This document shows, in pieces, positions 1 to 46,744 of a stretch of DNA of 64,000 nucleotides (position 1 is its first letter; the number at the start of each line of letters is the position of its first letter). The notes below the pieces were generated by a model, which ran no database searches, was not told the DNA's origin, and saw only the letters and a program-made list of their open reading frames with translations. The position numbers and the translations under genes were made by a program. The DNA lies in IMG/VR virus record IMGVR_UViG_3300033148_006239, positions 1 to 64,000 of that record. The stretch is one strand, 5' to 3'. Source of the stretch: a virus.

Positions 1-22
1 ATTCTTTTTCATATTTTCCTCC
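1..22 (-). promoter_or_regulatory. RBS + ATG (GGAGGAAAAT-ATG-AAA-AAG-AAT) of a possible gene running off the left edge
   Basis: Reverse complement of 10-22 is GGAGGAAAATATG, identical to early-gene starts at 2541, 2872 and 3920. Confidence 0.6.
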
Positions 23-485
23 AAAACATTTTAAATCCTCACTTTATCCCATCACACCCACAATCAAATCCTTTTTTTAACCTCCATCCATAAACATAAT
101 AAAACATATTAAAAAAATCAACCTTATTTAAAAAAAAATACTCTTTTTTCAACAAAAACACTAAATCTTCACAACCTTACTATTTTATCACAACTTTAAC
201 ACATAATCTTCACTAAATCTTCACATTCTATCAAAAAAAATTTTTTTTAATTTTATAAAAAATTAAAAACTCAATATAATTCAAAATACTTCCAACATCT
301 CAAACACACCCTACCACCTCTCTACATCCATCCCTCAAATAACCCTACCACCACAAACCATCCTACACTTCAAATAACCATCCCTTTATTATCTCAACAT
401 TTTATCTTAAAATTACCTACATATCAACTTTTTATCACATCTACCTCTTAATTATATCCAAATCTAATACTTACCATAAAAAATC
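1..485. other. G-free, C-rich non-coding tract (extreme strand asymmetry)
   Basis: No G on the + strand until position 486; internal short direct repeats CACTAAATCTTCACA x2, CCCTACCAC x2, TCAAATAACC x2. Confidence 0.95.
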
Positions 486-914
486 GCCGTACGAAACACG
501 ACAGAAGCGATTTCGGTCATCAATCATCTCGAATAGTTTTCTTACCATGACTCTAACCACGCCGATTGAAGCGTGATTGATTACAGTTCAGATCTCTATC
601 TATCTCTAACCAATCTCTAACCGTCGCAATCTGATCAATTCATGCCATTTCGGATTTCTGTCAATCTGATAAAAGATAGAAACTAAGAATATATTAGTTT
701 CTTGATTGAAAAAAGTACTTTTATATGAAGTTAGAACAAAAAATCATTCAAAAAGACAGAAAATAGAAATTAAATTCGTATCGTGACTAAAGAATTAATT
801 ACTTTTCTGTCAAAAAGACTGATTTTAAAACGCTTTTGTATAGGGTAGATAAAAACTATCATTTCAACAACAATTCTTTAGAAAATAATATGAATTATAT
901 GTTTCAATGCGCCG

Positions 915-1023
915 AAATGAGTCAAATGACCGCTTTTCGAGCGAAGAAATGACCGTTTTCGGCACAGAAATGATAAAAACACGTCGAAAATGACTCAAAT
1001 CCGCTCTTTTTGATCGAAAATGA
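915..1023 (+). repeat. Six AAATGA direct repeats, iteron-like
   Basis: Copies start at 915, 924, 947, 968, 988, 1018; two extend as AAATGACCG(C)TTTTCG and two as TCGAAAATGA. Confidence 0.6.
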
Positions 1024-1586
1024 ACCCAGACAGCATGAAACCAAGACTTTTGATACGAAATTGATATAAATATCAAAAATCGATCAAATTAATGGAAAAC
1101 CGTGATTAGAAGTACTGATCAAGACAAGAATCAGATATATAAAGAGCGCCGTTTGCAGTCAGATTATATATCATTTTCTGTGCTTTTACTTATACTTATC
1201 TATTCCTCTATTCTTATATAGATTATGAAGAAGTCTATGGAGGTAACTAAAGAATATGATTAGAATGATTACCTTTCAAATGACTTCCTTTCTTTTCATA
1301 TTTTTTGCGATCTCGGAGAGTTCCATTGCAAGATTTGATATATATATTACGTTTCTTTATGACCGAAGACTAATGAATGGTTTACTTCGTTTCTATCTAG
1401 ACTGATTCTATTATAAATATTAAATCGATTCAATTTGATAAGATCATTAAATCGTTCACTATATCGATCTTATTAATTGAATCAAATAATATCTAAAGAA
1501 ATAACAATTGATCAAATGACTGATAGAACCTATATCTATCTTATGATTATTTTTTTTATTTTTTTAATTCTTTTGGGAAACTGGTA

Positions 1587-1615
1587 TTTTCTTTATTAAT
1601 CTATTTTATTATATT
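1587..1615 (+). promoter_or_regulatory. Early-class promoter TTTTCT-N17-TATATT
   Basis: Same geometry and TTTAT before the -10 as the sites at 4369, 5330, 6118, 9713 and 11317. Confidence 0.7.
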
Positions 1616-1619
1616 TATA

Positions 1620-1853
1620 TTATAATTTTTATTTATTAATTTAATAAATAAAAATTATAAAGAATTGGGGTTCCATATCCATCATCCCCGTTAGAGCCAA
1701 AGAAAGTGGTAGATTCGAAAGGATATCGATCTTTATATAAGAATGCTAAATCCTGTTCGGAACGTACAAGAGCCTCCATCAGGTCATATATATTTCTCCT
1801 CCAAAAATATTCTGGTCGGGGGAGGGAACTAATTCTATTAGTTCCTTCCTTTG
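1620..1853 (+). ncRNA. Candidate small RNA 1 with anti-RBS loop
   Basis: Between a promoter and a terminator; perfect 20-bp inverted repeat at the 5' end (1620-1660); CUCCUCC in a hairpin loop; no RBS-led ORF. Confidence 0.55.
1821..1853 (+). terminator. Intrinsic terminator
   Basis: GGAGGGAACTAA-ttcta-TTAGTTCCTTCC then TTT; its G.U pair forms only on the + strand. Confidence 0.65.
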
Positions 1854-1979
1854 ATTAGTTTATTTAATATATTTCTAGTGTTTCAATATGGATCTCCTGA
1901 TCACAGGATCTTTTGATTCAGAAGATCGTTTAGTTCAGGAGGTCTTTATGGGAACATTAGCTTCCCATGGAGGAAAATT

Positions 1980-2486
1980 ATGAATGAATTACATCCGATC
2001 TTTGCATCTATTCATGAGATTGAGGATATAACATTCAATGTCTACGGCATCAAAGTCGAAGACTGTGTTATATCAGGTATCTATAACAATCTATCATTTT
2101 CATGTAAACTTTCTATTACGGATTTCCATGTCGATCTATCTCATTTTATCAATATGGACAATCATGTGAAAGTTACGGTTTCTAATAAAATTCGTACTCT
2201 TTTAGGATACGAACCTTATTATGAAGATATTTCAATGCATGAACAAGAGATCAACGACTTTCCAAAACTTTGTCAGGATTTCGCTGACCACGTCAAATCG
2301 TTATTCAAATTCGCAGAATCGAACTCTTTATCTCCTGATCAATTCAAAAGATTTAGAATTAATTATATCAAGGATTTTAAAAACTTCGATACTTTCCACG
2401 ATCTATTTTTTCACGTTGGCTACATTCTATCTGAATCTACGGAACAAGATATCATGGATCACCTTGAAGAATATTATTCAAAGTAA
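1980..2486 (+). CDS. Early hypothetical protein (N-part resembles ORFs 2551 and 3930; C-part resembles ORF 2882)
   Basis: GGAGG RBS at 1969; visible internal paralogy. Confidence 0.85.
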   Translation: MNELHPIFASIHEIEDITFNVYGIKVEDCVISGIYNNLSFSCKLSITDFHVDLSHFINMDNHVKVTVSNKIRTLLGYEPYYEDISMHEQEINDFPKLCQDFADHVKSLFKFAESNSLSPDQFKRFRINYIKDFKNFDTFHDLFFHVGYILSESTEQDIMDHLEEYYSK

Positions 2487-2553
2487 TCAAATTCAAGCTA
2501 CTTCTAACGAGGTAGCTTCTTTGAGATTATTTAAATCTCAGGAGGAAAATATG
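2481..2553 (+). promoter_or_regulatory. Repeated two-hairpin leader, copy 1
   Basis: AAGTAATCAAATTCA, stem AAGCTACTTC/GAGGTAGCTT, stem TGAGAT/ATCTCA with TTATTT apex, GGAGGAAAATATG. Confidence 0.75.
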
Positions 2554-2790
2554 AAATTAAGATCAATTAAATTCGAAAACTTATTCTTGGTCTGGTACGA
2601 ATGGAAAGAAGGTGAACATGAATTTCACGGTCTTTTCAATGGAAAACACTTCAAAACAACAACATGGGATTACGAACTCTATGACAAATTTGAATCCGAA
2701 GAAATCGATTTCTATAGCCAAGAAAGAAATGATCTACATGAACAAATTAATGAAGCGTTTGATTATTATTTTTCTAATGTTGAAAAATAA
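2551..2790 (+). CDS. Early hypothetical acidic protein (79 aa)
   Basis: Start moved to the ATG after GGAGG at 2541; the track start at 2221 overlaps the previous gene. Confidence 0.85.
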   Translation: MKLRSIKFENLFLVWYEWKEGEHEFHGLFNGKHFKTTTWDYELYDKFESEEIDFYSQERNDLHEQINEAFDYYFSNVEK

Positions 2791-2792
2791 TC

Positions 2793-2884
2793 AAGTAATT
2801 CAATTGAGATTCATAAAATATTTAAAATTATTTAAAAACATTATGGATCTCGATGGGTTTATTTAACCCTCGGAGGAAAATATG
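2793..2884 (+). promoter_or_regulatory. Repeated two-hairpin leader, copy 2
   Basis: AAGTAATTCAATTGA, stem GAGATTCATAA/TTATGGATCTC, stem GGGTT-tattt-AACCC, GGAGGAAAATATG. Confidence 0.7.
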
Positions 2885-3508
2885 GAAACTATACATCAAA
2901 TTCTAGAACGTCAACACATTACAAAAGGCTTAGGAAATGGTTATGAAGGTGAAACAGTTAAAACTTTCTGTTTTAACGATATTTTAAACTCAATATCATT
3001 TTCACTTGCAAATGATTTAATTGGTTCAAAATATGCTGGAGAATTACTTCAACGAGCTACTGAAAATCTATCTAGCATATTTAAAGATCTTAATGTAGTC
3101 GGTGATCTAATTATTAATCGTGTTTCAAATCAAAATGAAGGATCAACTACTCTTCATACTGATGAAAAAAATATCGTAATTAATTATTCTGAATCACCAA
3201 ATTTGTTTGCGGTTCGTATGAAAATTCACGATATTGAAAAATATCACAATGAAGTTTCAATGTATCAAGATGATGTTGATAATTTCCCAAAAAATGTCAA
3301 AGACTTCGCAGATGAAGTTTTTGAAACTTGGGAACTTGCTCAGAAACATTTAACCGAACAGGAATTTAAGCAATTCCAAATTAATTTCATTAAAGATCTG
3401 GGTAGTTCAAGTACAATGTTTGATATGATGTTCGGTGTAAGGTTCATATTATCAGAAGAAGATGATAATATGATTGTTAATCAAATCAAAGAAAATTACA
3501 TCAAGTAA
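2882..3508 (+). CDS. Early hypothetical protein
   Basis: GGAGG RBS; C-terminal ~75 aa aligns by eye with ORF 1980 (FPK...DFAD.V...FK.F.IN.IKD...ILSE). Confidence 0.85.
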   Translation: METIHQILERQHITKGLGNGYEGETVKTFCFNDILNSISFSLANDLIGSKYAGELLQRATENLSSIFKDLNVVGDLIINRVSNQNEGSTTLHTDEKNIVINYSESPNLFAVRMKIHDIEKYHNEVSMYQDDVDNFPKNVKDFADEVFETWELAQKHLTEQEFKQFQINFIKDLGSSSTMFDMMFGVRFILSEEDDNMIVNQIKENYIK

Positions 3509-3579
3509 TCCAATTCAAATCGCTTGGTATTTATCAGGCGATTTCTTTGGGATTATTTTATCCCAGGAGGAAAAATATG
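3503..3579 (+). promoter_or_regulatory. Repeated two-hairpin leader, copy 3
   Basis: AAGTAATCCAATTCA, stem AAATCGCTTG/CAGGCGATTT, stem TGGGAT-tatttt-ATCCCA, GGAGGAAAAATATG. Confidence 0.75.
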
Positions 3580-3840
3580 ATTTTAGAATTAAAAGATACT
3601 AATGAATTTATGCGTCTAGATGATGACGATCCTATAACTGGGATTGAAGACCTATTCAATTTTTATTTAACAACACTTAATACAGATTATTCAAAATCTG
3701 TATTAAAAGATCTTAAATTCCCTTTAAATCTTTATTGGGGTTCAATTTATGATTCTTTAGAAGATGCTAAATTGAATGATCCAACTAATGAATCTGCATC
3801 GGGTTGGACAATTGATAAATTTATTGGTAACCGGCTATAG
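3577..3840 (+). CDS. Early hypothetical protein
   Basis: ATG after GGAGG; the track start TTG at 3547 lies inside the leader hairpin. Confidence 0.8.
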   Translation: MILELKDTNEFMRLDDDDPITGIEDLFNFYLTTLNTDYSKSVLKDLKFPLNLYWGSIYDSLEDAKLNDPTNESASGWTIDKFIGNRL

Positions 3841-3859
3841 CAACGATGGAAATCTAATT

Positions 3860-3932
3860 AAGTAACCAAATTCAGATCCATTCATTGTAAGTGGATCACT
3901 TTGTGGTTATTTGCCACAAGGAGGAAAATATG
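3860..3932 (+). promoter_or_regulatory. Repeated two-hairpin leader, copy 4
   Basis: AAGTAACCAAATTCA, stem GATCCATT/AGTGGATC, stem TTGTGGT-tattt-GCCACAA, GGAGGAAAATATG. Confidence 0.75.
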
Positions 3933-4220
3933 AAACAGGTTATTTTTCAAACACGAGATTTAGTTCTTGAGTTTCAAGAAATAGAACTCGACAACATTAT
4001 TGTTAGTGGTTTGTATCACGATAAACCATTTTCAGGTGTTATTTCACGAACAGCATTTGAAAAATTTGATTATAACAATACCTTTTCATCTAAAGAATTG
4101 GATGATCTTTTTGAAGATATTAAAAAATCAATTGATATTTATTATTTAGATGCTGAAGATGAAGATGAACCTTTATCTGATTATGTTTTAGAAATTTTTG
4201 GAGGAGAAATTGTTCAATGA
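3930..4220 (+). CDS. Early hypothetical acidic protein, paralogue of ORF 2551
   Basis: GGAGG RBS; GLYHDKPF vs GLFNGKHF; S.E..DL.E.I....D.Y pattern shared. Confidence 0.8.
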   Translation: MKQVIFQTRDLVLEFQEIELDNIIVSGLYHDKPFSGVISRTAFEKFDYNNTFSSKELDDLFEDIKKSIDIYYLDAEDEDEPLSDYVLEIFGGEIVQ

Positions 4221-4345
4221 TTATAAAAATAACAACTCTACCATCAAAAGATCTACCAGTATATCATCTCATTAAACGTTACCATAAAAAATCTTATCCT
4301 AAAGTGTCATTTAAAGAAATTTTACTTGAAGCTTTAAATAAGTAA
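4217..4345 (+). CDS. 42-aa basic protein, possibly ribbon-helix-helix
   Basis: Not in track; GGAGGAG RBS at 4200, ATGA overlap with upstream stop, ends SFKEILLEALNK. Confidence 0.55.
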   Translation: MIIKITTLPSKDLPVYHLIKRYHKKSYPKVSFKEILLEALNK

Positions 4346-4368
4346 TCTTTTAGTTGTAGAACTTAAAT

Positions 4369-4397
4369 TTCATCTTAGAAAATCTATTTATTATATT
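4369..4397 (+). promoter_or_regulatory. Early-class promoter TTCATC-N17-TATATT
   Basis: TTTAT-TATATT-ATAA upstream of the RBS of ORF 4435. Confidence 0.6.
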
Positions 4398-4434
4398 ATA
4401 AATAGGTAAAAATTTCATTTTACTTGGAGGAAAT

Positions 4435-4638
4435 ATGGTTTGTCGTACAGAAAACTATGCTTTCAAACTCAAAAATGGTCAAGAAGTAAAAGCTCATTAC
4501 AGAGATTTCTTAGAAACAGAAAATGGTAAAATCTATTGCGATGATCTTGCCGAAGAACTTTGCTATGATAATAAAACAATCAAGATTAAAGATGAAAATG
4601 GTGACTTTTCAGAAGCCATTGAATTGTTTGTTTTATAA
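4435..4638 (+). CDS. Hypothetical protein
   Basis: TTGGAGGAAATATG start. Confidence 0.8.
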   Translation: MVCRTENYAFKLKNGQEVKAHYRDFLETENGKIYCDDLAEELCYDNKTIKIKDENGDFSEAIELFVL

Positions 4639-4662
4639 TTAATTTATTTCATTGGAGGAAAT

Positions 4663-4881
4663 ATGAATTTTGAATTACAATCGGCTATTAATCAACTTGA
4701 TAGTGCCGCAGAGAGCTTAAAAAGATATTCAGAAGAATTAGAAAGAACTATCAAAAGCCTTAAAGATGGTAAAAATCCAAACCCTAATACTTTGGGATTA
4801 ACAACATTCATCGGTAATCTTACATCAAATATATCAAATAAAATTGCTCTTGCAATTTGCAATCTCTGTGAGATTAAGTGA
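4663..4881 (+). CDS. Hypothetical protein
   Basis: TTGGAGGAAATATG start. Confidence 0.8.
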   Translation: MNFELQSAINQLDSAAESLKRYSEELERTIKSLKDGKNPNPNTLGLTTFIGNLTSNISNKIALAICNLCEIK

Positions 4882-5027
4882 TGAATGATTACAATTATCA
4901 AAAACAACTTGATGAAGCTTGGGAACAACAAATCTTCTTCGAAGAAAAACGTATCAAATGTGGATGTAAAATTTGTTTAAATGAAGAATCTGAAGATCCA
5001 TGTCAAGATGTATTAGATTTATGGTAA
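4881..5027 (+). CDS. 48-aa hypothetical protein with CxCxxC
   Basis: TGATG coupling to the upstream stop; fills the gap. Confidence 0.5.
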   Translation: MNDYNYQKQLDEAWEQQIFFEEKRIKCGCKICLNEESEDPCQDVLDLW

Positions 5028-5041
5028 ATAAATGAGAAACT

Positions 5042-5248
5042 ATGAAAATCTTTAGAGAAGAACCTGGCAAAAATAGCTTTACAATTTCAGGATTAACTCT
5101 TGGTAAGCTTAATCTTATTAAAAGATTAATCATTTCAGCTTCTGAAAATTCTGATTCTGCTATTGTTGAAGATTTAAAATGTTTTTTAAATCAATATGAT
5201 CTAAAAAACACGAACACTTATGACGGCGACGTAAAATCAAATTCCTGA
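5042..5248 (+). CDS. Hypothetical protein
   Basis: ORF in operon orientation. Confidence 0.7.
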   Translation: MKIFREEPGKNSFTISGLTLGKLNLIKRLIISASENSDSAIVEDLKCFLNQYDLKNTNTYDGDVKSNS

Positions 5249-5329
5249 ATAAAAAATTATCCTTTATAATAATATAATTTTTTAATTCGTAAAACTGATA
5301 ACTTTTTTTGATCTCACGAAAATCGCCTA

Positions 5330-5358
5330 TTTACTTTAGTTTCTCAATTTATTATATT
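5330..5358 (+). promoter_or_regulatory. Early-class promoter TTTACT-N17-TATATT
   Basis: Upstream AAAATC(A)GCCTATTT shared with the promoter at 9713. Confidence 0.7.
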
Positions 5359-5397
5359 TTAAATATATAACACTGTAATACGGTGTTTGGAGGAAAT

Positions 5398-20714: not shown

Positions 20715-23700
20715 TTAACCACAACTACCATCAGAATTACCACAATTTGGACATGTTTTACATCTTCCTGTTTGTTCCATCAATGTTCCACATTTACTAC
20801 ATGATTCACCAGTTTCTTTTTGAACTTGTGTAACATTTTTATCTAAATATTTCATTAATAAATATTTACCTAAATAGTCTGAAGGTGAATTAACAAATCT
20901 TAATTCATTGATACTGCTTGATGTAATTCCAGCAGGTTCATATTTCATATCAATTAATGAATTACATAATTCTTCTAAAGGAACTTCGTATTGTAATGCC
21001 TTTGATATTATCTTTGCAAGTGAATCCATTAAACCAGCAGTCGTAGATCCTTCTTTATTCATAATTATAAATAATTCTGCTAAACTACCATCATCAAATT
21101 CACCTGGAATTATATACATTGTTTGTTTATCAATCTTTACTTTATGTACTGAGGCATTTCTTGTATCATCAAGTGCTTTCTTTTTATTGCTTTGACCAAT
21201 AAAACCTTTATTATTACCAGTATTCAGTGGCTGAGTCATTTTACTTCCATCTCTGTAAATTGTAATACCTTTTAATTTACTTTTCCACGCAAACATAAAT
21301 GCATCTTTAACATCATCAACTGTAGAATCTGAACTCATATTTATTGTCTTTGAAATCGCACCACTGATAAAGGGTTGTACTGCAGCAACCATCATTATAT
21401 GTGCTTCATAGCTAAGCATATTCCCAGCTTTATCGGGTAATGAACATTCAAATACTTTTTGATGTTCTTCTTTCAAAAATTTACAATCACTTAAATCATT
21501 ATTCTCTGACAGATGTTCTAGAATATTTCTCGTATAATTTTCATCATATCCTAGTGCTTTCAATGCATTTTGTACCGAATCATTTATTAAAATTTCTGTA
21601 GTACCACTTATTAATTTCTTATACTTTATTAAAGCTAAATCAGACTCAATACCTGTCGTATCACAATCCATTAAAAATGATATTGTACCAGTAGGAGCTA
21701 TTACTGTAACTTGAGCGTTTCTAAATGTTAAACCTTCCGATGTAATAAATGACCAATTATCAAGTGCTTCGTCGTACAATTCATTATAATTAAAATCTAT
21801 CTTTAATTGAGGAAAATTTATTCTTTTGTGTTCTACTAAATGCTTCTTAAGAACCTTTCTGAAAGAAGATTTATTTTTTTCAAAATATTTAAATGGTTCT
21901 AAAAATTCAGATACTTCAGAGCTTACAGCATAAGCAGTAGACGTCATTAAACTAGTGATAAGAGATGCGATTAATCTTCCATCATCTGAATCATAAGGAA
22001 TACCTAATGTCATTAACAGTGATCCAAGATTACTAAAGCCTAATCCTAATGGTCTAAAATCTTGTGAATTTTCTTTTACTGATTCATTTGGATATTCAGA
22101 AATCTCACATATAATATCTTGCGAAATTACAAATAATTTTATAATGTGCTTGAATTTATCAATATCAAATTTATTACCATCTAGAAGTTTTATTAAATTA
22201 ACCGATGCTAAATTACATGCACTATCATTAAGAAAAACATATTCACCACAATTATGTATAATAACAAATCCCTTCTCAGATCCAGCAGCAAAATTTCCCA
22301 ACGAAGGAACAGATAAATCATAAACATCTTCACGTTTACGTTTTCTTACATAAATAACTTTATGATTATATTGTAAACATTTTTCTTTAAAATCATCCCA
22401 ATCTAAACCTTGAACTCTTCTTTTATAAGTATGACCAATAGGAGCTTTACCTCTATAGCGTTCTTTAACTATTTTATTCCATTCATTTAATTCTGATCTA
22501 TTAACTCTCTTATTTTTAGAATAATTTTCTAAAGCTTCAACCATTATATTATATAATAGTTTAGCGTCACAATCCATAAACATACCATTATTAACACCTT
22601 TCCTAGCACAATTTTCTTTCCAAAGATCATATTTTTCTTTATTCGTATTCTTCAAAATACGAATAGGATTATTATCTCCCATAACATGATCTCTAGCATG
22701 CTTTGACTTTGAAATAACTTCTAAATTATTTGGATCATCATTGAGCTTATCATGATCTTTATGATGTACATGAAATTGTCTATCACTTCTATCAAAATCT
22801 AATATATCGTTAGCAACAACTCTATTACACTTTTGTAATGGATATTCACCATCCAAAAGATTCATTCTTCTATACCCAAATTTATCAACTCTACAATAAA
22901 ATGGTGTCAAAGAATCACCTTGTTTTAAATCTTTTGCTTTTTTATATTTACCGTTCTTTAATAAAAATCTATGATCTGGTGTACAATCTATATAGCCACC
23001 ACTACCGAACCCGACTCTTACTGTTTCTGTATTAACTTTTGTTTTAACTATCTTATTGACTTTTCCAACTGAAATCCTTTTCCTATCATAAGAATAACCA
23101 TAAACATATAAATTATCATAATCATTAATAAGTTCATCAACTCTTTTCGGACCACGCGTCGTAAATATTAATGTTGATCCAGTAACACATGGATTACTAG
23201 ATTCTATCTTACCACTTCTCTTGCACGTGTGCCAATCATTAACTCTCGTATCAAAGAACAAAGCAGGATCTCCACAAAAATGTGAATATTCACAAATTTT
23301 ATTAAATACTTCTTTTGCATTCAAAATATCAATTTGATCACCAGTTGTTCTTGCCACTGTGGCGTACGTATTATTTTGCACTACTCTTTCCATAAAATCG
23401 TCAGTTACGGAAACAGAAAAATTACTGTTCTGAAAATTAACATGTTTATATGCACTATTTTTACTAGAAAAATCTGTCGAATATTCTCCTGTAGAAGCTA
23501 ATAATCTTGCTTTAATCTCTTCTTTATATTTAGCTTCAATAAATTCAATAATATCAGGATGGTCGTAGTTCAATATTTCCATTTTTGCGGCGCGACGTGT
23601 ATTTGAAACACAAATTCCTTTACCATAAATATCACTTTTATTATCTAACGACCATATAATATAATTATGACCAGAATTTATAGATTTATCATCTAAAGAA

Positions 23701-25214
23701 TCGCAATCAACTTCAACAGAATATACTTCTTCTTCTTTTAATTTTATTATTTCAATAATTTTATGATTATTTTCATTTACTGTTTTTAAAAAATTTTCAT
23801 AATCACCAAAATAATTTTCGATACTTCTTTTTAATCTTGGTACACTGTCAAATTTACCAATATATTTTAATCTATTTTTTACATATAAATCAAATGTATC
23901 TATATTTCCACCTGCATTAATAACTCTATATGCAGTATTCATTAATTTAGTTTTAGCTGTTTTATCAGAATATTTAACTTTTCTATTTTTTCCTGAAATA
24001 CTCAATTTTTCTTTCCAATTTTTAACTTTTTCTTCGTCTTTATGAAAATTATTTTTCTTATGCATTCCATTTTTTTCACCTTTTTTAGGCAAAGGTTTTA
24101 ACCATGGATGACTTTTATTTTTTACATATTCATCATTATGAATTTTTGCATGTTCTTTTTGTGTTAAAATTTGTAAATTATTTAAACTATTATTATGTGT
24201 ATTACTATCTTTATGATGAACTACTTTACCTTTTAAATCTTTATTTAAAATATCTTTACTGATTAATCTATATAGTGTATCTCTTCCTTTTTTACCATCC
24301 ATTAATCCAATTCTCATTTTCTCATCGATATTAAATGAAAATAATCTCATTCCAACTTCTAAGTCTATTGTATGTATAAACTCACCTGTTCTCAATTTAA
24401 TAGGATGATCATAACTTAAATCAAATGTACCTTTATCTGTTTTAATCCTATAGCATTGTTTGATACCTGAACACCACGCTTTAGCACTTTTAACCATATA
24501 TCTATTTTTTTTAGGATCAAAACTACAAACATAAAATTTATCTTTTGTTAATTCATCAATCCTTTTTGCTCCGTCAATAGTATAAATTTTTTGGTGACCT
24601 GGTAAACATTTACCGCCCGACTTAACTACCGCAGCTGTCTTATCGTATAATTCCATAAACGAAAGAGGACCTGATGGAACACCACCACCTGACAATTTCT
24701 CTCTAAATGATCTAATCTTACTTCTATTAGAACCTATTCCTGATCCATATTTAAATATCTTAGCTTCGTTTGCAACATTATCTATAATTGAATCTATAGT
24801 GTCTTCAGAATCAACTATAAAACAAGCACTTAAAAATCCTTTTTTATCATTACCTAAGTTGAATAATACTGGACTATTAAACATTGTAATTTGATGAATT
24901 AAAATGTACATCATTTCATTATAAAAAGTTTCATGATTTTTAGTATCAAAATATTTTAATCTGACACCATTTTCGCATAATCTCGAAACAATTCTATCAA
25001 ACATATCAAAGATTGAATATTCATTTTCTGTTAAATAAAATTTTGTTGCAATTCTAACTGCTACATCAGACCAAAAATCTGGATATTCTATAACCTTTTT
25101 ATAATTATGATCATTATCATCGCTATATTCTATTTCTTTGCTTATCCAATTGCAGAAATCTTTCTTCTTCATTATTGAAAATTTACGTGTGTAAGCATTA
25201 TTTATCTTTATCAT
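20715..25214 (-). CDS. nrdJ: Class II (B12-dependent) ribonucleotide reductase with two inteins
   Basis: FNSP, SACF, NP|CGE, ACNLAS, IAPTGTIS, ISKTIN, YRDGS motifs; C-terminal Zn ribbon. Confidence 0.93.
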   Translation of the reverse strand: MIKINNAYTRKFSIMKKKDFCNWISKEIEYSDDNDHNYKKVIEYPDFWSDVAVRIATKFYLTENEYSIFDMFDRIVSRLCENGVRLKYFDTKNHETFYNEMMYILIHQITMFNSPVLFNLGNDKKGFLSACFIVDSEDTIDSIIDNVANEAKIFKYGSGIGSNRSKIRSFREKLSGGGVPSGPLSFMELYDKTAAVVKSGGKCLPGHQKIYTIDGAKRIDELTKDKFYVCSFDPKKNRYMVKSAKAWCSGIKQCYRIKTDKGTFDLSYDHPIKLRTGEFIHTIDLEVGMRLFSFNIDEKMRIGLMDGKKGRDTLYRLISKDILNKDLKGKVVHHKDSNTHNNSLNNLQILTQKEHAKIHNDEYVKNKSHPWLKPLPKKGEKNGMHKKNNFHKDEEKVKNWKEKLSISGKNRKVKYSDKTAKTKLMNTAYRVINAGGNIDTFDLYVKNRLKYIGKFDSVPRLKRSIENYFGDYENFLKTVNENNHKIIEIIKLKEEEVYSVEVDCDSLDDKSINSGHNYIIWSLDNKSDIYGKGICVSNTRRAAKMEILNYDHPDIIEFIEAKYKEEIKARLLASTGEYSTDFSSKNSAYKHVNFQNSNFSVSVTDDFMERVVQNNTYATVARTTGDQIDILNAKEVFNKICEYSHFCGDPALFFDTRVNDWHTCKRSGKIESSNPCVTGSTLIFTTRGPKRVDELINDYDNLYVYGYSYDRKRISVGKVNKIVKTKVNTETVRVGFGSGGYIDCTPDHRFLLKNGKYKKAKDLKQGDSLTPFYCRVDKFGYRRMNLLDGEYPLQKCNRVVANDILDFDRSDRQFHVHHKDHDKLNDDPNNLEVISKSKHARDHVMGDNNPIRILKNTNKEKYDLWKENCARKGVNNGMFMDCDAKLLYNIMVEALENYSKNKRVNRSELNEWNKIVKERYRGKAPIGHTYKRRVQGLDWDDFKEKCLQYNHKVIYVRKRKREDVYDLSVPSLGNFAAGSEKGFVIIHNCGEYVFLNDSACNLASVNLIKLLDGNKFDIDKFKHIIKLFVISQDIICEISEYPNESVKENSQDFRPLGLGFSNLGSLLMTLGIPYDSDDGRLIASLITSLMTSTAYAVSSEVSEFLEPFKYFEKNKSSFRKVLKKHLVEHKRINFPQLKIDFNYNELYDEALDNWSFITSEGLTFRNAQVTVIAPTGTISFLMDCDTTGIESDLALIKYKKLISGTTEILINDSVQNALKALGYDENYTRNILEHLSENNDLSDCKFLKEEHQKVFECSLPDKAGNMLSYEAHIMMVAAVQPFISGAISKTINMSSDSTVDDVKDAFMFAWKSKLKGITIYRDGSKMTQPLNTGNNKGFIGQSNKKKALDDTRNASVHKVKIDKQTMYIIPGEFDDGSLAELFIIMNKEGSTTAGLMDSLAKIISKALQYEVPLEELCNSLIDMKYEPAGITSSSINELRFVNSPSDYLGKYLLMKYLDKNVTQVQKETGESCSKCGTLMEQTGRCKTCPNCGNSDGSCG
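22251..23189 (-). mobile_element. Intein 2 (313 aa) with HNH endonuclease, at the NP|CGE catalytic Cys
   Basis: Starts CVTGSTLI; block B CTPDH; HHKDHDKLNDDPNNL; ends VYDL...IIHN/C. Confidence 0.92.
23601..24608 (-). mobile_element. Intein 1 (336 aa) with HNH endonuclease, at KSGGK|TRRAA
   Basis: Starts CLPGHQKI; block B LSYDH; HHKDSNTHNNSLNNL; ends CVSN/T. Confidence 0.88.
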
Positions 25215-39002: not shown

Positions 39003-39794
39003 TTAATTTCTTTCCCAGACACTAGGTCTATTATTCCAAAATCCTGTTTTAATAGGACTATATCCATAATCTTTCAATATAAAACTAAATAACTTTGATA
39101 AAGATCTCCTTGAATATAATTTTCCTTCATATATTGTTTCATTAAAATGTCCTGTTTGTACAATATTAAATCCATTTGCAACTACAAATATTCTTGGATT
39201 ACATTGTACTATAATAGACTCTAAATGATCGATTGTATTTTCTATATGTTCAAAATATTCACTACAAAAAGCAATGTCACATTCAGATAATTTACTATAA
39301 TTATGTTCTATTTTTATATTGTCATTTTTTCTTGCAACAAATCTAGCTATTTTATATTGCTTTGATTGTTTTAAATTTGTACCAATAATATTTGCCTCTG
39401 AATAAGCTTCAGACAATGCACATGTTGTAAATCCTATACCACATCCAAAGTCTATAACTGTTTCTATATCCTCATAATTTAATGTTGCTAATCTTTTAAC
39501 ATAATTTTTAGAATCAAAAAGCCATCCATATAAAGCTATTGCTAAATAATATGATCCATCATATACTGAATAATCAGGTATTGCTAATTTCAAAGATCGA
39601 TACCAACGATTTATATATTTAAATCTTGACTCAAATGGATCAAAATTATTTCCTTCTTTAATTTCATCTATTGCAAGTTCTTCATTTTTATTAATTTCCT
39701 CTTCTGTAATATCATTAAATAATCCCATTATAATTTTTTTAAAATATTTTTTTGTAATTTTTTGATTTGAATTTAAAAAATTAATATCGTGCAT
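39003..39794 (-). CDS. Class I SAM-dependent methyltransferase
   Basis: VIDFGCGIG motif I; CSEYFEHI; no DPPY/PCQ DNA-MTase motif seen. Confidence 0.8.
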   Translation of the reverse strand: MHDINFLNSNQKITKKYFKKIIMGLFNDITEEEINKNEELAIDEIKEGNNFDPFESRFKYINRWYRSLKLAIPDYSVYDGSYYLAIALYGWLFDSKNYVKRLATLNYEDIETVIDFGCGIGFTTCALSEAYSEANIIGTNLKQSKQYKIARFVARKNDNIKIEHNYSKLSECDIAFCSEYFEHIENTIDHLESIIVQCNPRIFVVANGFNIVQTGHFNETIYEGKLYSRRSLSKLFSFILKDYGYSPIKTGFWNNRPSVWERN

Positions 39795-40784
39795 TTATTC
39801 ATCCATAAATAATGATTTTTCATAATCTGATAATCTATTAAAACTATCTCTATCTGAACTAAAATTGATCCAATCATTTGGGTCATTTATTGGTAATCCT
39901 AATTGATCTTCTAAAGTCTTTTTATCAGTACAGCTTTGATTAAAAGTTGAATAATCTGTACCTGAAGAATGTCTACCGCATGATGAAAATAAACATCCAA
40001 AAGCATTACTTAAATGATCATCTTTTGAATAAGTACATTTTTTTGATCTATCACATCCAGGTCTTAACGTATCTGCAATCAAACTTAATCCTAACTTTTC
40101 GATTTTATATCTAATCAACCAATGTAATCCAACAATAAATTCTTCTTCACAAAATTGCATTCTTCTATTACACTGACCCATCAATGCTAATAAATTTTGT
40201 GTAAAATGATAAGGATGATGATAACTCATAGGTAATACAGATCTAGCTGCTTGCCATGTACCTTGATCTTCTTTAACTATCATTTCATAAATATCTTTCA
40301 TTTGTTTAAAATGTTCGATAATAATATCTCTTAATTGTGCATCTTCTTCAAATAATTCTTTATAATATGTATATAAAATAATTGATGCATCTAATTTATT
40401 ATTGTCTCTACAACCGCTTGACCCAAACCCAGTTCCTATTCTTGCTCTTGCGTGTTGATCAAAACAATGTCGTGGTAAACCTGTAACTTTAAAAGTAAAC
40501 GTAACTGATTCTAAAGCTGTTGGTAATGTATTACCAGTCAAAGCAGATAATACAACAAAATATCTATTCAATGGATCTAATTCATTCCATTTATTAATAT
40601 AATCATCATTACCCCATGTTGCAGTAGCTATTGCAAAAATTGATTTATATGGATTTTCATTATAATCAATTATTTCAACATCAAGTTTTTCACACCCAAA
40701 ATATATATATGTCTCTTTTACAGGTCTTTCAGATGGCAATGTTCCCATTGCTTCTCTTAATTCATTAATTCTTTCATTTGTCAT
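39795..40784 (-). CDS. Divergent ThyX-like flavin-dependent enzyme
   Basis: LESVTFTFKVTGLPRHCFDQHARARIG...SSGCR, QAARSVLP, RRMQ; RHR replaced by RAR. Confidence 0.7.
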   Translation of the reverse strand: MTNERINELREAMGTLPSERPVKETYIYFGCEKLDVEIIDYNENPYKSIFAIATATWGNDDYINKWNELDPLNRYFVVLSALTGNTLPTALESVTFTFKVTGLPRHCFDQHARARIGTGFGSSGCRDNNKLDASIILYTYYKELFEEDAQLRDIIIEHFKQMKDIYEMIVKEDQGTWQAARSVLPMSYHHPYHFTQNLLALMGQCNRRMQFCEEEFIVGLHWLIRYKIEKLGLSLIADTLRPGCDRSKKCTYSKDDHLSNAFGCLFSSCGRHSSGTDYSTFNQSCTDKKTLEDQLGLPINDPNDWINFSSDRDSFNRLSDYEKSLFMDE

Positions 40785-40786
40785 AT

Positions 40787-41761
40787 TTACTCCTTCATAC
40801 TTTCCCAAATTTTATCTATTATATCTGCATAATTTTGATATTCTATAGAGTATTCATCATAAATTCCTTCAAACATTTCTTCTAGATAATCCATATCACA
40901 TATATGATCACCTAAATAATCTCCAGTATCATGTATATTAATACTATTATTCCAACCGTATGTACATTTTATATAATCAACTATATCTTCAAATTTAACA
41001 GGCACACCTTTGGCTAAATTAATACTTTTATGAATATACTTTTTTGTTATTAACAAATTTTTAGTATATTCATATTCAGTAAATGCATATATATCTAATA
41101 TAATTGACAATAACTTTGAAAAATCATCGATATAAAAATAATCTTTATATTTATTATATTCTAAATAGATATCAAGTTTCTCTTTTTTATGAAAACGAAT
41201 ATGTCTTAGTATTAAATTTATCATACTTGAATTATCGTAAGGATAATCACCACATACAAAAACAGGTCTAACATTAAACCAATCAATATCTTTATTTATA
41301 AATAAAATATCTTCAGCTGCTTTTTTAGTTATACCATATAACGAAGGATGATTTTCAAATGGTTTAGCGTTATTGCAAAATCCACCAATAGAAGTATCAA
41401 ATTCAAATGGATCAAATATAGTTGTGCTACTAAAATTGATTAAAGGTAAATCGAACTCTCTACATATTTTAATAATATTCTGTGTCCCTAAAACGTTTGT
41501 TAAAATAGTTTCTTCTTCATTGTTTATACATCTATGTGTTCCTACAACTGCGGCTATATGTATAATAGCATCAGGTTTCCAATCATTAATTGCATTTCTC
41601 ATTTGAGTATAATCTTTAACATTAAAATGAAATCTTTCTGTATCTAATCCGTCATTATAAGTTGGATAAATATCTGGCATAATATCATATTTATGACTTA
41701 ATTGTTTATCTAAGCCACGTGCAATCATTCCATTATGACCTGTTAAAAATAATTTATACAT
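40787..41761 (-). CDS. NAD-dependent NDP-sugar epimerase/dehydratase (extended SDR)
   Basis: TGHNGMIA, IIHIAA, TNVLGT, FSST, YGITK. Confidence 0.9.
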   Translation of the reverse strand: MYKLFLTGHNGMIARGLDKQLSHKYDIMPDIYPTYNDGLDTERFHFNVKDYTQMRNAINDWKPDAIIHIAAVVGTHRCINNEEETILTNVLGTQNIIKICREFDLPLINFSSTTIFDPFEFDTSIGGFCNNAKPFENHPSLYGITKKAAEDILFINKDIDWFNVRPVFVCGDYPYDNSSMINLILRHIRFHKKEKLDIYLEYNKYKDYFYIDDFSKLLSIILDIYAFTEYEYTKNLLITKKYIHKSINLAKGVPVKFEDIVDYIKCTYGWNNSINIHDTGDYLGDHICDMDYLEEMFEGIYDEYSIEYQNYADIIDKIWESMKE

Positions 41762-41771
41762 TTATTTTACC

Positions 41772-42278
41772 TCAATCATCGTCGGGATATGCACCTCTAG
41801 AATACCAAGAATCATCATCAAGATCATTATTGATAACATCATTCATATCATCGCAAATCTCCATAAAATTTTGTAATTTATTAACACAAGCGTCAATATT
41901 ATTTGCCGATGTATTTATTTCAATAAAATTCGCCTTTAGTTTATTGACAATATCAATGAAAATTGTTTGTTGATAAAATAGACTGCGTCTTGAAATAGTA
42001 TGACACTTCATTTCATCAGTAGATTCAATTCTCTCAAGAAAATCATTCGCATTTACTATACATAAAACTATTACAGAATGTTTACAAATATCTTTACTTA
42101 TTTTATATAAAATATCATTATCATGTTCTCTTTTATAAACTTTATTATATACTAATTGTGAAAGAATACTTCTGTCGTGACAAACATATTGATAATTATT
42201 TTGTAATTCAAAATTACGTCTCAATGTTGATTTACCTGACTTATCAATACCTTCAAAGAATATTAATTTACTCATCAA
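41772..42278 (-). CDS. Thymidylate-kinase-family dNMP kinase
   Basis: FEGIDKSGKST, HDRSILSQLVY. Confidence 0.85.
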   Translation of the reverse strand: MMSKLIFFEGIDKSGKSTLRRNFELQNNYQYVCHDRSILSQLVYNKVYKREHDNDILYKISKDICKHSVIVLCIVNANDFLERIESTDEMKCHTISRRSLFYQQTIFIDIVNKLKANFIEINTSANNIDACVNKLQNFMEICDDMNDVINNDLDDDSWYSRGAYPDDD

Positions 42279-42486
42279 TACCTGCTTTTGTTACTGTAAA
42301 ATCTAATTTAATTTTTTCAATTATTTTTTTTGGTTTAATATAAATATCAACATAATTATCATTATAATTATCGTTATCGTTTAAATCAAATTCAAAATCA
42401 TCAATAATATCTTCATCTTTTAAGTCTTGCAAAAGCAATAATATTTTAATTTGAAATATAAAAAAATCAATATTAAATTTACTCAT
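42268..42486 (-). CDS. 72-aa protein resembling a tail-sheath C-terminal segment
   Basis: IIDDFEF...YVDIYIKPKKIIEKIKLDFTVTK. Confidence 0.5.
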   Translation of the reverse strand: MSKFNIDFFIFQIKILLLLQDLKDEDIIDDFEFDLNDNDNYNDNYVDIYIKPKKIIEKIKLDFTVTKAGIDE

Positions 42487-43057
42487 TAGTGTATGCCTTA
42501 TAAAGAGTATCTAATATATGTTTATAATCATCTACACTCATTCCACCATAAGATAAAACATAATTAGGATGATTTATTGGAAAAACAATTGCTTCTCTAT
42601 CATTATATTCAAATATAGATTCTTTATATAATTCTGCATCAAAAAATTTAGCAACTTGTTTACCTAAAGGAACGATTACTTTTGGTTTTAAAATCTGTAT
42701 TTCTTTTAATAGAAATCTATTACCACATTTATTAATTAATCTTTCATCAATCTTATTATTTTTTGTACTGCATTTAACAATATTTGTTATTGTACATTCA
42801 TTTAAATAATTGATCATTCTTAAAAATTCTAATCCAAAACCTCCATCAAAAGCAAACGTACCATATATCCCTCTAACATTTGATGGATTCATACCAACAA
42901 ATAAGAAATTATTTCCTATATGTAATCCTTTTAATTTACCAAACCCATATCTTATATCTTCTGTATTAAATTCTTCATCGCATAAATTTTTACATCGTTT
43001 ACATGTGCATAATCCGTAATAAAGTTTGTGAATCTTACTTTTCATATTTACTTTCAT
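42479..43057 (-). CDS. Uracil-DNA glycosylase superfamily protein (family 4-like)
   Basis: CKRCKNLC, FVGMNPS, TNIVKC, IVPLG, NHPNY. Confidence 0.85.
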   Translation of the reverse strand: MKVNMKSKIHKLYYGLCTCKRCKNLCDEEFNTEDIRYGFGKLKGLHIGNNFLFVGMNPSNVRGIYGTFAFDGGFGLEFLRMINYLNECTITNIVKCSTKNNKIDERLINKCGNRFLLKEIQILKPKVIVPLGKQVAKFFDAELYKESIFEYNDREAIVFPINHPNYVLSYGGMSVDDYKHILDTLYKAYTNE

Positions 43058-44031
43058 AAATTACTCATTATAGTATCAAAAGTAAAAAATGGAATAATAG
43101 TATCAATCTTTTTAATTCTTTCAATATACATATTGTTATAAGGTGTTATTTTCAAATAAACATCTACAGGCATTGATTTTGCAATCTTAATTGCATTATC
43201 TGCATCGTCTTCGACAACAAAAGATACATTTTTTAAATCTTTAATTATTCTATGCTCTTTCTTTTCATCCCAAAAAATCATATCAATAGGTAAATTATTA
43301 CTTGTTATCCATTTTAAAGTATCAGAATAGATTCTACTATATTTATGATATGGTCGTGCAGTTATTAATACAGTTATATAATCTTTTTTATATAAATATT
43401 GTAAAAATTCCTTTGCTCCAGGAACAAAATCCATTTCGGCTTTAACACCTGATTGTCTATATCTATCTTTTAATATTAATTGTACTTCTAAATCAAGATT
43501 TAAAAAATCATTAAAATCAATTATTTTTTCATTAATAGAAACATTATCTAACATACCATAATTAGACATAATATTCGAATATTCATTAATCCATTTAATA
43601 AAAAAATCAGGCCAATCAGCAATAACTCCATCAATGTCAATAACTGCAATCTTTTTATTTGAATCGATATTGTTTATAAATTTTTCTTGATTATACCTTG
43701 CTTCAACAACAGTTGTTTTATTTAAAAAATTCTTATAAAAATCTTCATCATTAATTCCCCACAAATTACACAACCCAACAAGAAACTTAAATATATCAAT
43801 CAATTCTTCAGAAATATTTGATCTAATTATATCGCCATCAAATTTTCTATGCATTTTAAATGGCATTTCATGTAATAATTCACCTATTTCAGAATAAAGA
43901 TGTAAACAAAATTCCTTAGACCAAAAAACTAACTCTTCTTCAGTTAAATTATTTATATCAAATCCTTTATCTTTAAAAACTTGATTATTAAAGTCAAGTT
44001 GTTTTTCCCAAATTTCTTTTAATTTATTCAT
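43054..44031 (-). CDS. Fusion of all-alpha dUTPase/dCTPase-like domain and HAD 5'-nucleotidase
   Basis: SEIGELL...EELIDIFKF; DIDGVIAD, ITARP, VEDD. Confidence 0.8.
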   Translation of the reverse strand: MNKLKEIWEKQLDFNNQVFKDKGFDINNLTEEELVFWSKEFCLHLYSEIGELLHEMPFKMHRKFDGDIIRSNISEELIDIFKFLVGLCNLWGINDEDFYKNFLNKTTVVEARYNQEKFINNIDSNKKIAVIDIDGVIADWPDFFIKWINEYSNIMSNYGMLDNVSINEKIIDFNDFLNLDLEVQLILKDRYRQSGVKAEMDFVPGAKEFLQYLYKKDYITVLITARPYHKYSRIYSDTLKWITSNNLPIDMIFWDEKKEHRIIKDLKNVSFVVEDDADNAIKIAKSMPVDVYLKITPYNNMYIERIKKIDTIIPFFTFDTIMSNL

Positions 44032-44989
44032 TTCCCCACCCATAAGCCATAACGTGATCAACAAAATCTTTTAACTTATCACACAATGTGTGAAACTGTA
44101 TAGAATGATCCCATGACGCATATCTACCAAAACATTTTATATCACCAATATGATCTAAACAATGATTCTCTAAAAAATAGCCATACTTTAACGTACCATA
44201 TTGTAATATACCACTAGACATAAAAATCTTTTTAAGTATACAGACATTATCTCGATCAATTGATTCATACGTAATTGTTTTATCTTTATTATCTGTAACT
44301 CTTATAAAAGGAATATCTTTATCAGCATAATATATATAATCATAATCGTTAAACATCAAACCATTTATTTTAACAAAATATTTGCTTTTATATTCATATT
44401 TAAAATAAGGATTTACATCAAATAATTTACAAAAATCAGGAGCAGGAATTGTATTAATAATATATTCATGACTAGTTCTAATTGAATAATTATTATCTAA
44501 ATGAATTGCAACGTGATTGTTATCATAATAGTCAACACGTTCAATTAAACTGTTATAATATGTAGTACCTTGAGACCACAAAAATCTACAAATTGTTTCA
44601 ATAAATTCTTTCTGTGAAAAATCAAAATATTCAAAATTATTACCTCCCGACGCGGTACTATCATAGTGTTTTCCATCTCGTGTAATTCTTGAATACTCTA
44701 ATAAAAATTCTTTTGTTGCATAATCTTTAATTTCATCATTGTAACAGAAACCAATGTTTGTCTTTTTAACATTTTGCTTGATATTAAATTGTCTTAAAAT
44801 CTTTTCTACTTCATCAGAAACATGTAAATATCTCGGACCAAAAGCGTTCTCATATTGACCATATAATTTTCCAATTATAGTTACATTACAATTGAGATAT
44901 TGTTTTAAATAATAAGCCGTTAATAGTGCTGCAGGACCAGCACCAATAATAATTATATCATTCATAATTAATTTCTTATCAATGGGCAT
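44024..44989 (-). CDS. FAD-dependent oxidoreductase (UDP-galactopyranose-mutase/HemY-like fold)
   Basis: IIIGAGPAAL, GPRYLH, INTIP, RVT, FGRYASW. Confidence 0.7.
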   Translation of the reverse strand: MPIDKKLIMNDIIIIGAGPAALLTAYYLKQYLNCNVTIIGKLYGQYENAFGPRYLHVSDEVEKILRQFNIKQNVKKTNIGFCYNDEIKDYATKEFLLEYSRITRDGKHYDSTASGGNNFEYFDFSQKEFIETICRFLWSQGTTYYNSLIERVDYYDNNHVAIHLDNNYSIRTSHEYIINTIPAPDFCKLFDVNPYFKYEYKSKYFVKINGLMFNDYDYIYYADKDIPFIRVTDNKDKTITYESIDRDNVCILKKIFMSSGILQYGTLKYGYFLENHCLDHIGDIKCFGRYASWDHSIQFHTLCDKLKDFVDHVMAYGWGNE

Positions 44990-45607: not shown

Positions 45608-46744
45608 TTAAATATCAATACCAGTTTCAAGTTTCACAAATTCAACTTCTGATTTTTTTTCAAGTTTTTTATGATCTCTCTTAATTGAATTAACTAATTT
45701 AATCATTGCTTTACTCTTCTTTAATCCTGCACAAATCATATACCCAGTAATTTTATCGACATTACTAGAATAGAAATAACTAACATACGAATTTGGAGTT
45801 CGAGTCATCACTTCAATTCTTTTAGAAATTAATTCTGCTTTTGTATTCATTGTATGTTTATCACTTCCCTTAGGTAAGACAATTGCCAATATATAATTCG
45901 TTGTTGTATTTATATCAAATGATCCATAATACATTGATTCTGTATTTAATTTACGTATAAACTCATCATCAATACCTTCATCCAATTGAAAATATCTGAA
46001 ATCAACAAACCCAGAATTTTTATTATAAAGTACCCTTTTTAAATCAGACATATCTATATTCGCATTATTACCACTTAAAAAGTCATAATTTGATTTAAAT
46101 GTAAAATCATAAAACATTTTTAAAGGATTAATAATGTGATAATTAATTCTATCATAATGTGTTTTCTTCATTTTAAATCTATCATATAGTAATTGATTAT
46201 CCGCAAGAATAACATTGACATAATCAATATCTTTCAAAAAGATATTTTCAATAAACCAATTAATTAATTTTATTGTATTGTTTTTTCTCTTAATACCTTC
46301 ATTCTTTTTTGGAGTTGAAATAATTACTAATATTTTTTTATTTAATTCAACCAATAGCTCAACAATAACTCTTGTAATTCCATTTCCACTACCCCCACCA
46401 CCTGATGTATAAATAATTATATATTCATCATCATCAACAATTCTTGGACCGCATATTTCTCCATCGACATCTTCATATTTTTCAAATAAAAATTTATTTA
46501 TTTTATCAATCTTATTTCTAGCTATCATTTCACCTTTATCAGGATCATTTCCAGTTCCATCTACACCTAAAAGCATAACATCTTCAATACTAAATAATTT
46601 GATATTATCAACTGCAGTATTAGATACAACAGTTTTTGTATTTTTAAAAAATTTACTATGTTGCTTTGCAAGCATAGTCCCACATTGACCATTACCAAAT
46701 ATTTTATCACTTATGGTTAAATCTAAAAACTGTTCCATTTCCAT
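45608..46744 (-). CDS. Tubulin/FtsZ-family GTPase (PhuZ/TubZ-like)
   Basis: GNGQCG, DGTGNDPDKG, SGGGGSGNG, ADNQ, T7 loop NIDMSD. Confidence 0.85.
   Translation of the reverse strand: MEMEQFLDLTISDKIFGNGQCGTMLAKQHSKFFKNTKTVVSNTAVDNIKLFSIEDVMLLGVDGTGNDPDKGEMIARNKIDKINKFLFEKYEDVDGEICGPRIVDDDEYIIIYTSGGGGSGNGITRVIVELLVELNKKILVIISTPKKNEGIKRKNNTIKLINWFIENIFLKDIDYVNVILADNQLLYDRFKMKKTHYDRINYHIINPLKMFYDFTFKSNYDFLSGNNANIDMSDLKRVLYNKNSGFVDFRYFQLDEGIDDEFIRKLNTESMYYGSFDINTTTNYILAIVLPKGSDKHTMNTKAELISKRIEVMTRTPNSYVSYFYSSNVDKITGYMICAGLKKSKAMIKLVNSIKRDHKKLEKKSEVEFVKLETGIDI

Follow-up and report, generated by a model that had tools for sequence, protein, structure and literature searches.

The locus and its phage

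The DNA analysed here (the window, 64,000 nt) is the start of a single-contig virus from IMG/VR (record IMGVR_UViG_3300033148_006239; 105,324 bp), classed there as having direct terminal repeats and given a CheckV completeness of 100%. The terminal 114 bp of the contig are a copy of its first 114 bp, giving a circle of 105,210 bp. Across the junction of this circle lies a tract whose + strand is free of G and whose sense strand is the C-free minus strand. It sits at the head of the 92-kb leftward gene block of the phage and carries two genes, ORF141 and ORF41, which on the searches described below appear to be orphans; the features of the locus are collected in Table 1.

Table 1. Features of the guanine-free tract and its flanks. 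Plain numbers are window positions; L001 6027-7211 corresponds to contig 104,026-105,210 and L001 5381-6026 to contig 103,380-104,025.
Feature	Position	Strand	Remarks
Three-letter arm	contig 104,026-105,210 plus window 1-485	no G on +, no C on -	1,670 bp; defined by composition
A/T core	contig 103,380-104,025 (L001 5381-6026)		646 bp; A and T plus a single C
Short opposite-skew arm	contig about 103,261-103,379	G-rich on +	defined by composition
ORF141	ATG at 12-10, leftwards to contig 104,797	-	141 codons, the first four in window 1..12
Shine-Dalgarno GGAGG of ORF141	18..22	-	inside the motif GGAGGAAAAT, then ATG
Box GTGAGGAT then TTAAAAT	35..42	-	12 nt upstream of the ORF141 Shine-Dalgarno
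ORF41	contig 104,726-104,601	-	41 codons
Box GTGTAGAT then TAAAAT	contig 104,757	-	13 nt before the Shine-Dalgarno of ORF41
Three boxes GTGAAGAT	224-217, 213-206, 172-165	-	untranslated 5' part
A8T8 palindrome	233..248	.	further copies in ORF-less modules, L001 6135-6155 and 6374-6394
G cluster	286-385	-	42-46% G on the C-free strand, four GGG runs
TTGATA-17-TAAAAT, sigma-70-like (10/12), leftward	399..427	-	consensus match only
TATAAT	456-451	-	consensus match only

The phage is tailed, with sheath, tape measure and baseplate genes, and encodes DnaE, DnaB, a DnaC/DnaA-like ATPase, a DnaG-like primase, SbcC and a ligase for replication. Transcription runs leftward for all but ~10 kb of the genome, and the terminase gene (contig 93,515-95,095) lies about 8.3 kb downstream of the island. 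Measured on each gene's own strand, GC3 skew is ~0 in + genes and +0.2 to +0.39 in - genes, so that the + strand is C-rich whatever the direction of the gene; this bias fits one-directional leftward replication, the skew leaving its starting point unfixed. No iteron cluster was found in the replication-gene module. Elsewhere in the window we noted a class II ribonucleotide reductase (20715-25214, minus strand, 1,499 aa) split by an intein with an HNH endonuclease domain and, in a phage of 105 kb, a tubulin/FtsZ-family gene (45608-46744, minus strand). A further cluster (39003-44989, minus strand) with a methyltransferase, a divergent ThyX-like protein, an NAD-dependent epimerase/dehydratase, a dUTPase_2-deoxypyrimidine 5'-nucleotidase fusion and a flavoprotein suggests, from its predicted gene products, a changed pyrimidine (T or U) in the phage DNA. 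The DpdA/TGT transglycosylase family PF01702 had no match in the whole record, 14/14 controls being positive, and there is therefore no sign of guanine replacement of the 7-deazaguanine type.

No DNA match was found among GenBank phages, and no GenBank phage has a terminase more than 30% identical to that of this phage. The best terminase relative with usable flanking DNA, from IMG/VR, is 36% identical, and a 48% identical one sits on a 2.5-kb contig. A similar tract is absent from 80 IMG/VR loci and from three whole genomes (terminase 30-36% identical in the genomes), all of them distant. Its absence from the three whole genomes indicates that it is not ancient in the wider group; with regard to G-free tracts at the corresponding locus of relatives, a comparison proposed in the initial annotation of this DNA, the relatives at hand are too distant to gauge conservation.

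That annotation had described 485 nt without a single G and an enrichment in C, and both observations hold: positions 1-485 contain 194 A, 163 T, 128 C and 0 G, the earliest G is at 486, and the share of C is 26.4% as compared to 14.5% in 486-5000. Once the circular junction is crossed the assembly extends the run leftward to 2,316 bp (contig 103,380 through the junction to window 485), with sharp edges at both sides, so the part first described was real but covered only a fifth of the element and missed its genes. The runner-up G-free run elsewhere in the 64-kb window is 90 nt. With G at 10.66% of the + strand the longest run expected by chance is ~83 nt, and the probability that a given 2,316-nt stretch lacks G is 10^-113. 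Among the controls, neither the 80 loci of distant relatives (~1 Mb) nor the three whole relative genomes contain a run free of any single base that is longer than 132 nt.

The element has three parts. The long three-letter arm contains 25.9% C and 0 G, with a GC skew of 1.0 (+1 on the non-template strand), an AT skew of -0.025 and a G:C content (26%) to be compared with the genome mean of 27.6%; blastn against the rest of the genome found no further copy of it. The A/T core has a G+C content of 0-0.5% across its 646 bp, and nothing comparable exists elsewhere in the genome, where the lowest-G+C 200-nt window outside the core and its edges stands at 13% and the second-longest A/T run is 60 nt. 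The core sequence is degenerately repetitive with a period of ~49, and it is flanked on either strand, reading inwards, by GGGG and then a T-run. Beyond it the skew is reversed: the stretch immediately left of the core has a + strand GC skew of +0.63, the most positive in the whole 92-kb leftward block. The element is thus mirror-skewed, with one arm very long and the other short.

Read along the sense strand, a 470-nt leader with promoter-like boxes and the G cluster is followed by ORF141 and ORF41, then by ~575 nt with four boxes and no ORF, and then by GGGG, the core and CCCC. A short C-rich, G-free patch and three promoter-like repeats lead to the first ordinary gene. These last are 38-nt repeats with TTTTTAAAAT, two of them in tandem (contig 103,158-103,311, L001 5159-5312), and they are likely candidates for the promoters of the main leftward block. 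The coding share of the island is only 24%.

An 8-nt box (ATCTACAC/GTGTAGAT) occurs six times, as compared to 0.2 expected from composition: once 12-13 nt before each of the two Shine-Dalgarno sequences, and four times in the 575-nt interval from ORF41 to the core, in which the ORF-less boxes, each with a TAAAAT-like hexamer and no -35 element, face the core. Their uniform orientation is not independent evidence, since the box contains G and can stand only on the minus strand. A scan of IMG/VR with a 17-mer box gave only two matches, both chance, and the number of sigma-70-like sites in the tract, by consensus scan, equals the shuffle expectation. No DnaA boxes were found.

With respect to structure, the hairpin and T-run that coincide with the right-hand limit of the tract (485..503, minus strand) are weak and unconvincing (folding z = -0.13), and the edge hairpins at both tract ends are no better than those of shuffles. 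No Rfam families were found in the tract. The sense RNA is predicted to fold only weakly (-14 vs -22 kcal/mol per 150 nt) and the antisense RNA scarcely at all (-2 kcal/mol per 150 nt). The island holds three A7-8/T7-9 palindromes, of which the two module copies read as a mini-ORF MKKIFF(K). To the right of the tract, three GGTTAGAG repeats lie at about 545-625 (minus strand) and at least five GAAATGA/AAAATGA repeats, ~20-30 nt apart, occupy 905-1040, in a spacer of ordinary composition between the island and the + early block; both sets are possible operator or iteron candidates. Further right, a sub-threshold Rfam match to the plant microRNA precursor MIR474 (1800-1918; 32 bits vs a cut-off of 48) was dismissed as chance, the sequence being merely a long hairpin terminator at 1812-1858.

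Coding capacity and retention of G:C pairs

A strong GGAGG site precedes both ORF141 and ORF41, and no other ORF led by a Shine-Dalgarno sequence was found in the tract. The extended form GGAGG[AT]AA[AT] occurs 11 times in the genome, twice at the tract ORFs, eight times in the + early block (1,969-5,389) and once elsewhere; the two ORFs thus carry the early-type Shine-Dalgarno of the phage, which is otherwise almost confined to the + early block. ORF141 has no C in any of its 141 codons, its protein lacks Ala, Pro, Thr, Gln and His, and its length exceeds the longest ORF (105) in 2,000 dinucleotide shuffles of the arm. Homologues of ORF141 were found neither in 5.8 billion proteins nor among 1.84 billion representatives, Pfam gave no match and the ESM Atlas nothing usable, and an exact 29-mer scanned in JGI metagenomes had no match; three JGI contigs are recorded as encoding the identical ORF141. 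The AlphaFold model, all-helical with a pLDDT of 55, is too poor for use.

The two genes allow the history of the tract to be judged from codon positions. Conversion of C to T turns CAA, CAG and CGA into stops, leaves G untouched and inflates Phe. When such conversion was simulated on the phage's own genes, only 2.3% of 141-codon windows remained open, and yet ORF141 and ORF41 are both intact. Phe is low in the tract ORFs (2% vs 5%), the opposite of the conversion effect. Third-position G in ORF141 and ORF41 amounts to 27% as compared to 9.1% genome-wide, NNG codons make up 35% vs 14.5% of the purine-ending two-fold codons (Fisher p = 8e-6), and GTG accounts for 10 of the 19 Val codons vs 5%. 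This threefold enrichment of G at synonymous sites means that G:C content was actively retained and placed on one strand. Codon-position composition together with ORF survival rules out both C-to-T and C-to-G conversion, and a product of deamination or conversion is likewise rejected, the complementary base being far from background and both ORFs open. Deamination acting as mutation alone, with C to T and A to G changes on an exposed strand, is an unlikely source of the tract as well, as the gain in third-position G comes at the cost of T and not of A. The argument of the initial annotation that simple G-to-A damage fails to explain the tract holds, and is strengthened by the third-position G.

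There are other ways in which the tract could be spurious, namely strand-specific base-calling error or a chimeric metagenome join besides chemical or enzymatic C-to-T conversion (G-to-A on the + strand), and the contig is indeed metagenomic, with a degenerate A/T core whose ~49-nt period is of the kind that assemblers collapse or stretch. We nevertheless regard an artefact as very improbable. Phage DNA adjoins the tract on both sides and the tract closes the circle, the Shine-Dalgarno type of its ORFs is native to the phage, ORF141 recurs identically on the three JGI contigs, and the cultured phage phi3T has a 173-nt tract of like kind, all of which add to the codon-level evidence given above. 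The tract is very probably a real island, kept by selection, with the C of every G:C pair on the + strand.

What kind of selection this might be is suggested by the purity of the tract. A single G would rarely create a motif, and absolute purity therefore argues against the avoidance of motifs such as restriction sites, PAMs or rut sites; what it indicates is a constraint at the level of individual nucleotides or of strand identity.

Possible roles in transcription, genome opening and packaging

The reading that we prefer, at a probability of roughly one in three, is that the tract may be a transcription-activated origin or genome-opening (start) zone. There are precedents for such zones in the origins activated by transcripts or R-loops, for instance T4 oriF and oriG, the T7 primary origin with its tandem promoters and then an A/T-rich stretch, ColE1 RNA II and mitochondrial CSBII; oriF, oriG and the T7 primary origin comprise promoters with a downstream unwinding element. 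In the phage described here, early leftward transcription would yield a G-bearing, C-free RNA on a G-free template, at maximal GC skew. Such an RNA would fold poorly on itself, and there would be no C-bearing non-template strand to outcompete it. Transcripts starting at the ORF-less promoter-like units would enter the A/T core, which would be the sole instantly melting place in the genome, and there, with the G4/C4 clamps, they might separate the strands and activate or prime replication in the leftward direction. The core may double as a packaging-start site. Start codons cannot be written without G and T, nor stop codons without T and A, which leaves C as the one letter that a translatable strand can do without; a pressure for one-sided G:C pairs across a coding stretch would thus lead to a C-free sense strand.

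An R-loop-primed origin was among the options of the initial annotation, and the anatomy now described fits it, with ORF-less boxes pointing into a unique A/T core bracketed by G4 and C4, a skew of +1, the G cluster near the 5' end and the one-directional strand bias. Like the known transcript-activated origins, the element has promoter-like units that would fire into an A/T-rich, easily melted element, non-template G runs at the edge of that element, and a position at the head of co-oriented genes. As regards promoters, the boxes lack a -35 element and are not sigma-70 consensus, sigma-70 scans are at chance, DnaA boxes are lacking, and the single orientation of the boxes is forced by composition. 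Unlike the known origins, moreover, the skew is absolute over 1.67 kb including two genes, the 646 bp of pure A/T are about ten times the size of known unwinding elements, and the promoters are only putative. R-loops can form without 100% purity, the A/T positions of the leader show no excess of purines (AT skew of the arm -0.025), and the tract is absent from the three whole distant relatives.

It is precisely the purity that lends weight to a different explanation, possible but tentative, in which the tract is a C-free early (pre-early) cassette shaped by selection on the first transcripts or on the exposed non-template strand. Each C might be a liability, as a deaminase target, as a stop for a chain-terminating CTP analogue, as a wait for the scarcest NTP or as a Rho contact, and the first genes and their leader would therefore be written without C; the A/T core would then be a separate insulator or terminator. 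With 0 in 2,316 positions each single C would seem to count, which motif avoidance would not give. Both ORFs have the early-type Shine-Dalgarno, the island is discrete with no gradient while no gene outside it has less than 5% C, and the C-rich, G-free patch right after the core on the sense strand resembles a designed Rho entry site. Yet only about a quarter of the tract is coding, it takes in DNA upstream of any plausible start site, and the loss of G in the core is left unexplained. The adjacent early genes, with the same Shine-Dalgarno and an ordinary C content (11-17%), would be hit too, no C-directed host system is known here, and a mere ban on C does not predict a threefold synonymous G enrichment.

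A broader form of the idea, which we consider improbable, is that phages write kilobase segments, genes included, in three letters because a process of the host or of the phage affects each single C in the first transcripts or each G in their template. Such a C-directed process, at the same low probability, might be chain termination by a nucleotide analogue, the action of a deaminase, or gene expression in the absence of CTP.

In a third explanation the tract would flank the site at which packaging starts (pac) or the genome opens. The terminase would bind and cut the A/T core, and the skewed arms would be the DNA beside the virion ends, on the model of SPbeta-like phages; with only three letters, end strands that are resected or unwound would form no G-C hairpins. 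The initial annotation had offered, among its options, an unstructured single-stranded landing zone at a genome end or pac site. The position of the tract at the contig start carries no meaning: the 114-bp terminal repeat was rejected as the true virion ends, as the unrelated IMG/VR contig G001 has an overlap of exactly the same length, which must therefore be an assembler value. A pac flank stays alive by another route, because cultured SPbeta-like phages show skewed arms of the same polarity at the packaging start. In SPbeta, phi3T and Goe11-14 the genome-opening or packaging-start point lies between yonP and yonR (bioRxiv 10.1101/2021.11.22.469490). In the 130 kb of SPbeta examined, GC skew reaches its most positive value (+0.66) in the yonP-yonR spacer; after this peak comes an arm poor in G and rich in C, at -0.4. 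The records of BUCT082 and BUCT083 start or finish inside this spacer. Beside the mapped packaging-start region of phi3T (KY030782, 55,525-55,697; L105 4791-4963) we observed a right arm with a 173-nt G-free run of 30% C; phi3T_65 is an annotated 37-codon ORF on the C-free strand of that run.

The likeness extends to polarity and place. In both cases mirror GC-skewed arms of the same polarity surround an A/T-rich centre; the site is a divergent junction at the head of the structural block, with the terminase gene 8-10 kb downstream, and the present element heads the leftward block at its 8.3 kb from the terminase. We nonetheless hold a pac flank to be unlikely. The phages are unrelated and no homology of the packaging machinery was found; tblastn of the 139 predicted proteins against 130 kb of SPbeta matched only DnaE (25% identity), the HU-like protein and the ligase. 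The Spbetavirus arms are 60-300 nt long, 10-30 times shorter than here, and mostly impure, and their centre is 75% A/T vs 100% here. In the literature consulted on SPbeta-like phages the arms are not linked to packaging, and no mention of GC skew at the yonP-yonR spacer was found in papers on these phages. The contig's own ends are an assembler overlap, and no mechanism is known by which a terminase would need a three-letter strand.

A role for the + strand RNA appears the least probable of all. In this explanation, also an option of the initial annotation, the tract would be a very long C-rich, G-free Rho-loading element that kills rightward (antisense) transcription. Rut sites are C-rich, G-poor and unstructured, and the + strand RNA, at 26% C and 0% G and nearly unstructured (-2 kcal/mol per 150 nt), would qualify. 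However, ~80 nt are enough for Rho, not 2.3 kb, and Rho loading would be at most a side effect. The genes, Shine-Dalgarno sequences and repeated boxes are all on the other strand, no ATG, GTG or TTG is possible on the + strand, and our scans found no convincing rightward promoter; the sense strand is the minus strand, and Rho loading as the principal role of the tract lacks support.

We note that the start zone, the C-free early cassette and the pac flank are not mutually exclusive.

Precedents and implications

A search of the literature for cytosine-free and guanine-free phage tracts yielded no published account of natural phage DNA that lacks one base over kilobases. Among published cases of strong skew in coding DNA, the bacterial GRINS (PMC8256042, 2021) come closest; they are repeated elements linked to gene conversion, with both GC and AT skew. 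As in GRINS, an intense strand skew recodes protein-coding DNA, but the arm described here is single-copy by blastn against the rest of the genome and lacks the joint skew, its GC skew of 1.0 being accompanied by an AT skew near zero. The tract also resembles the synthetic G-less and C-less cassettes or "trinucleotide" templates in that it can be copied with three nucleotides only; those, however, are laboratory constructs of about 400 nt at most, whereas the tract occurs in nature, spans 2.3 kb and includes genes. A methods paper has stated that natural DNA is without stretches of 20-200 nt that miss one base (PMC6526412), and here 2.3 kb of natural DNA with two intact genes does so. Whatever enforces this acts on single nucleotides or on strand identity, a level of constraint that is absent from textbooks.

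Should the tract mark the start of replication or of packaging, such sites could be found cheaply in uncultured phages by their extreme one-sided composition. A role in protecting early messages would hint at a C-directed host activity as yet unrecognised, and if such a C-directed process were real, base composition would be a weapon in the conflict between phage and host, with ORF141 and ORF41 perhaps a counter-measure made first. A smaller version lies next to a mapped site in the cultured phages SPbeta and phi3T, whose host is tractable, and the question can therefore be tested at the bench.
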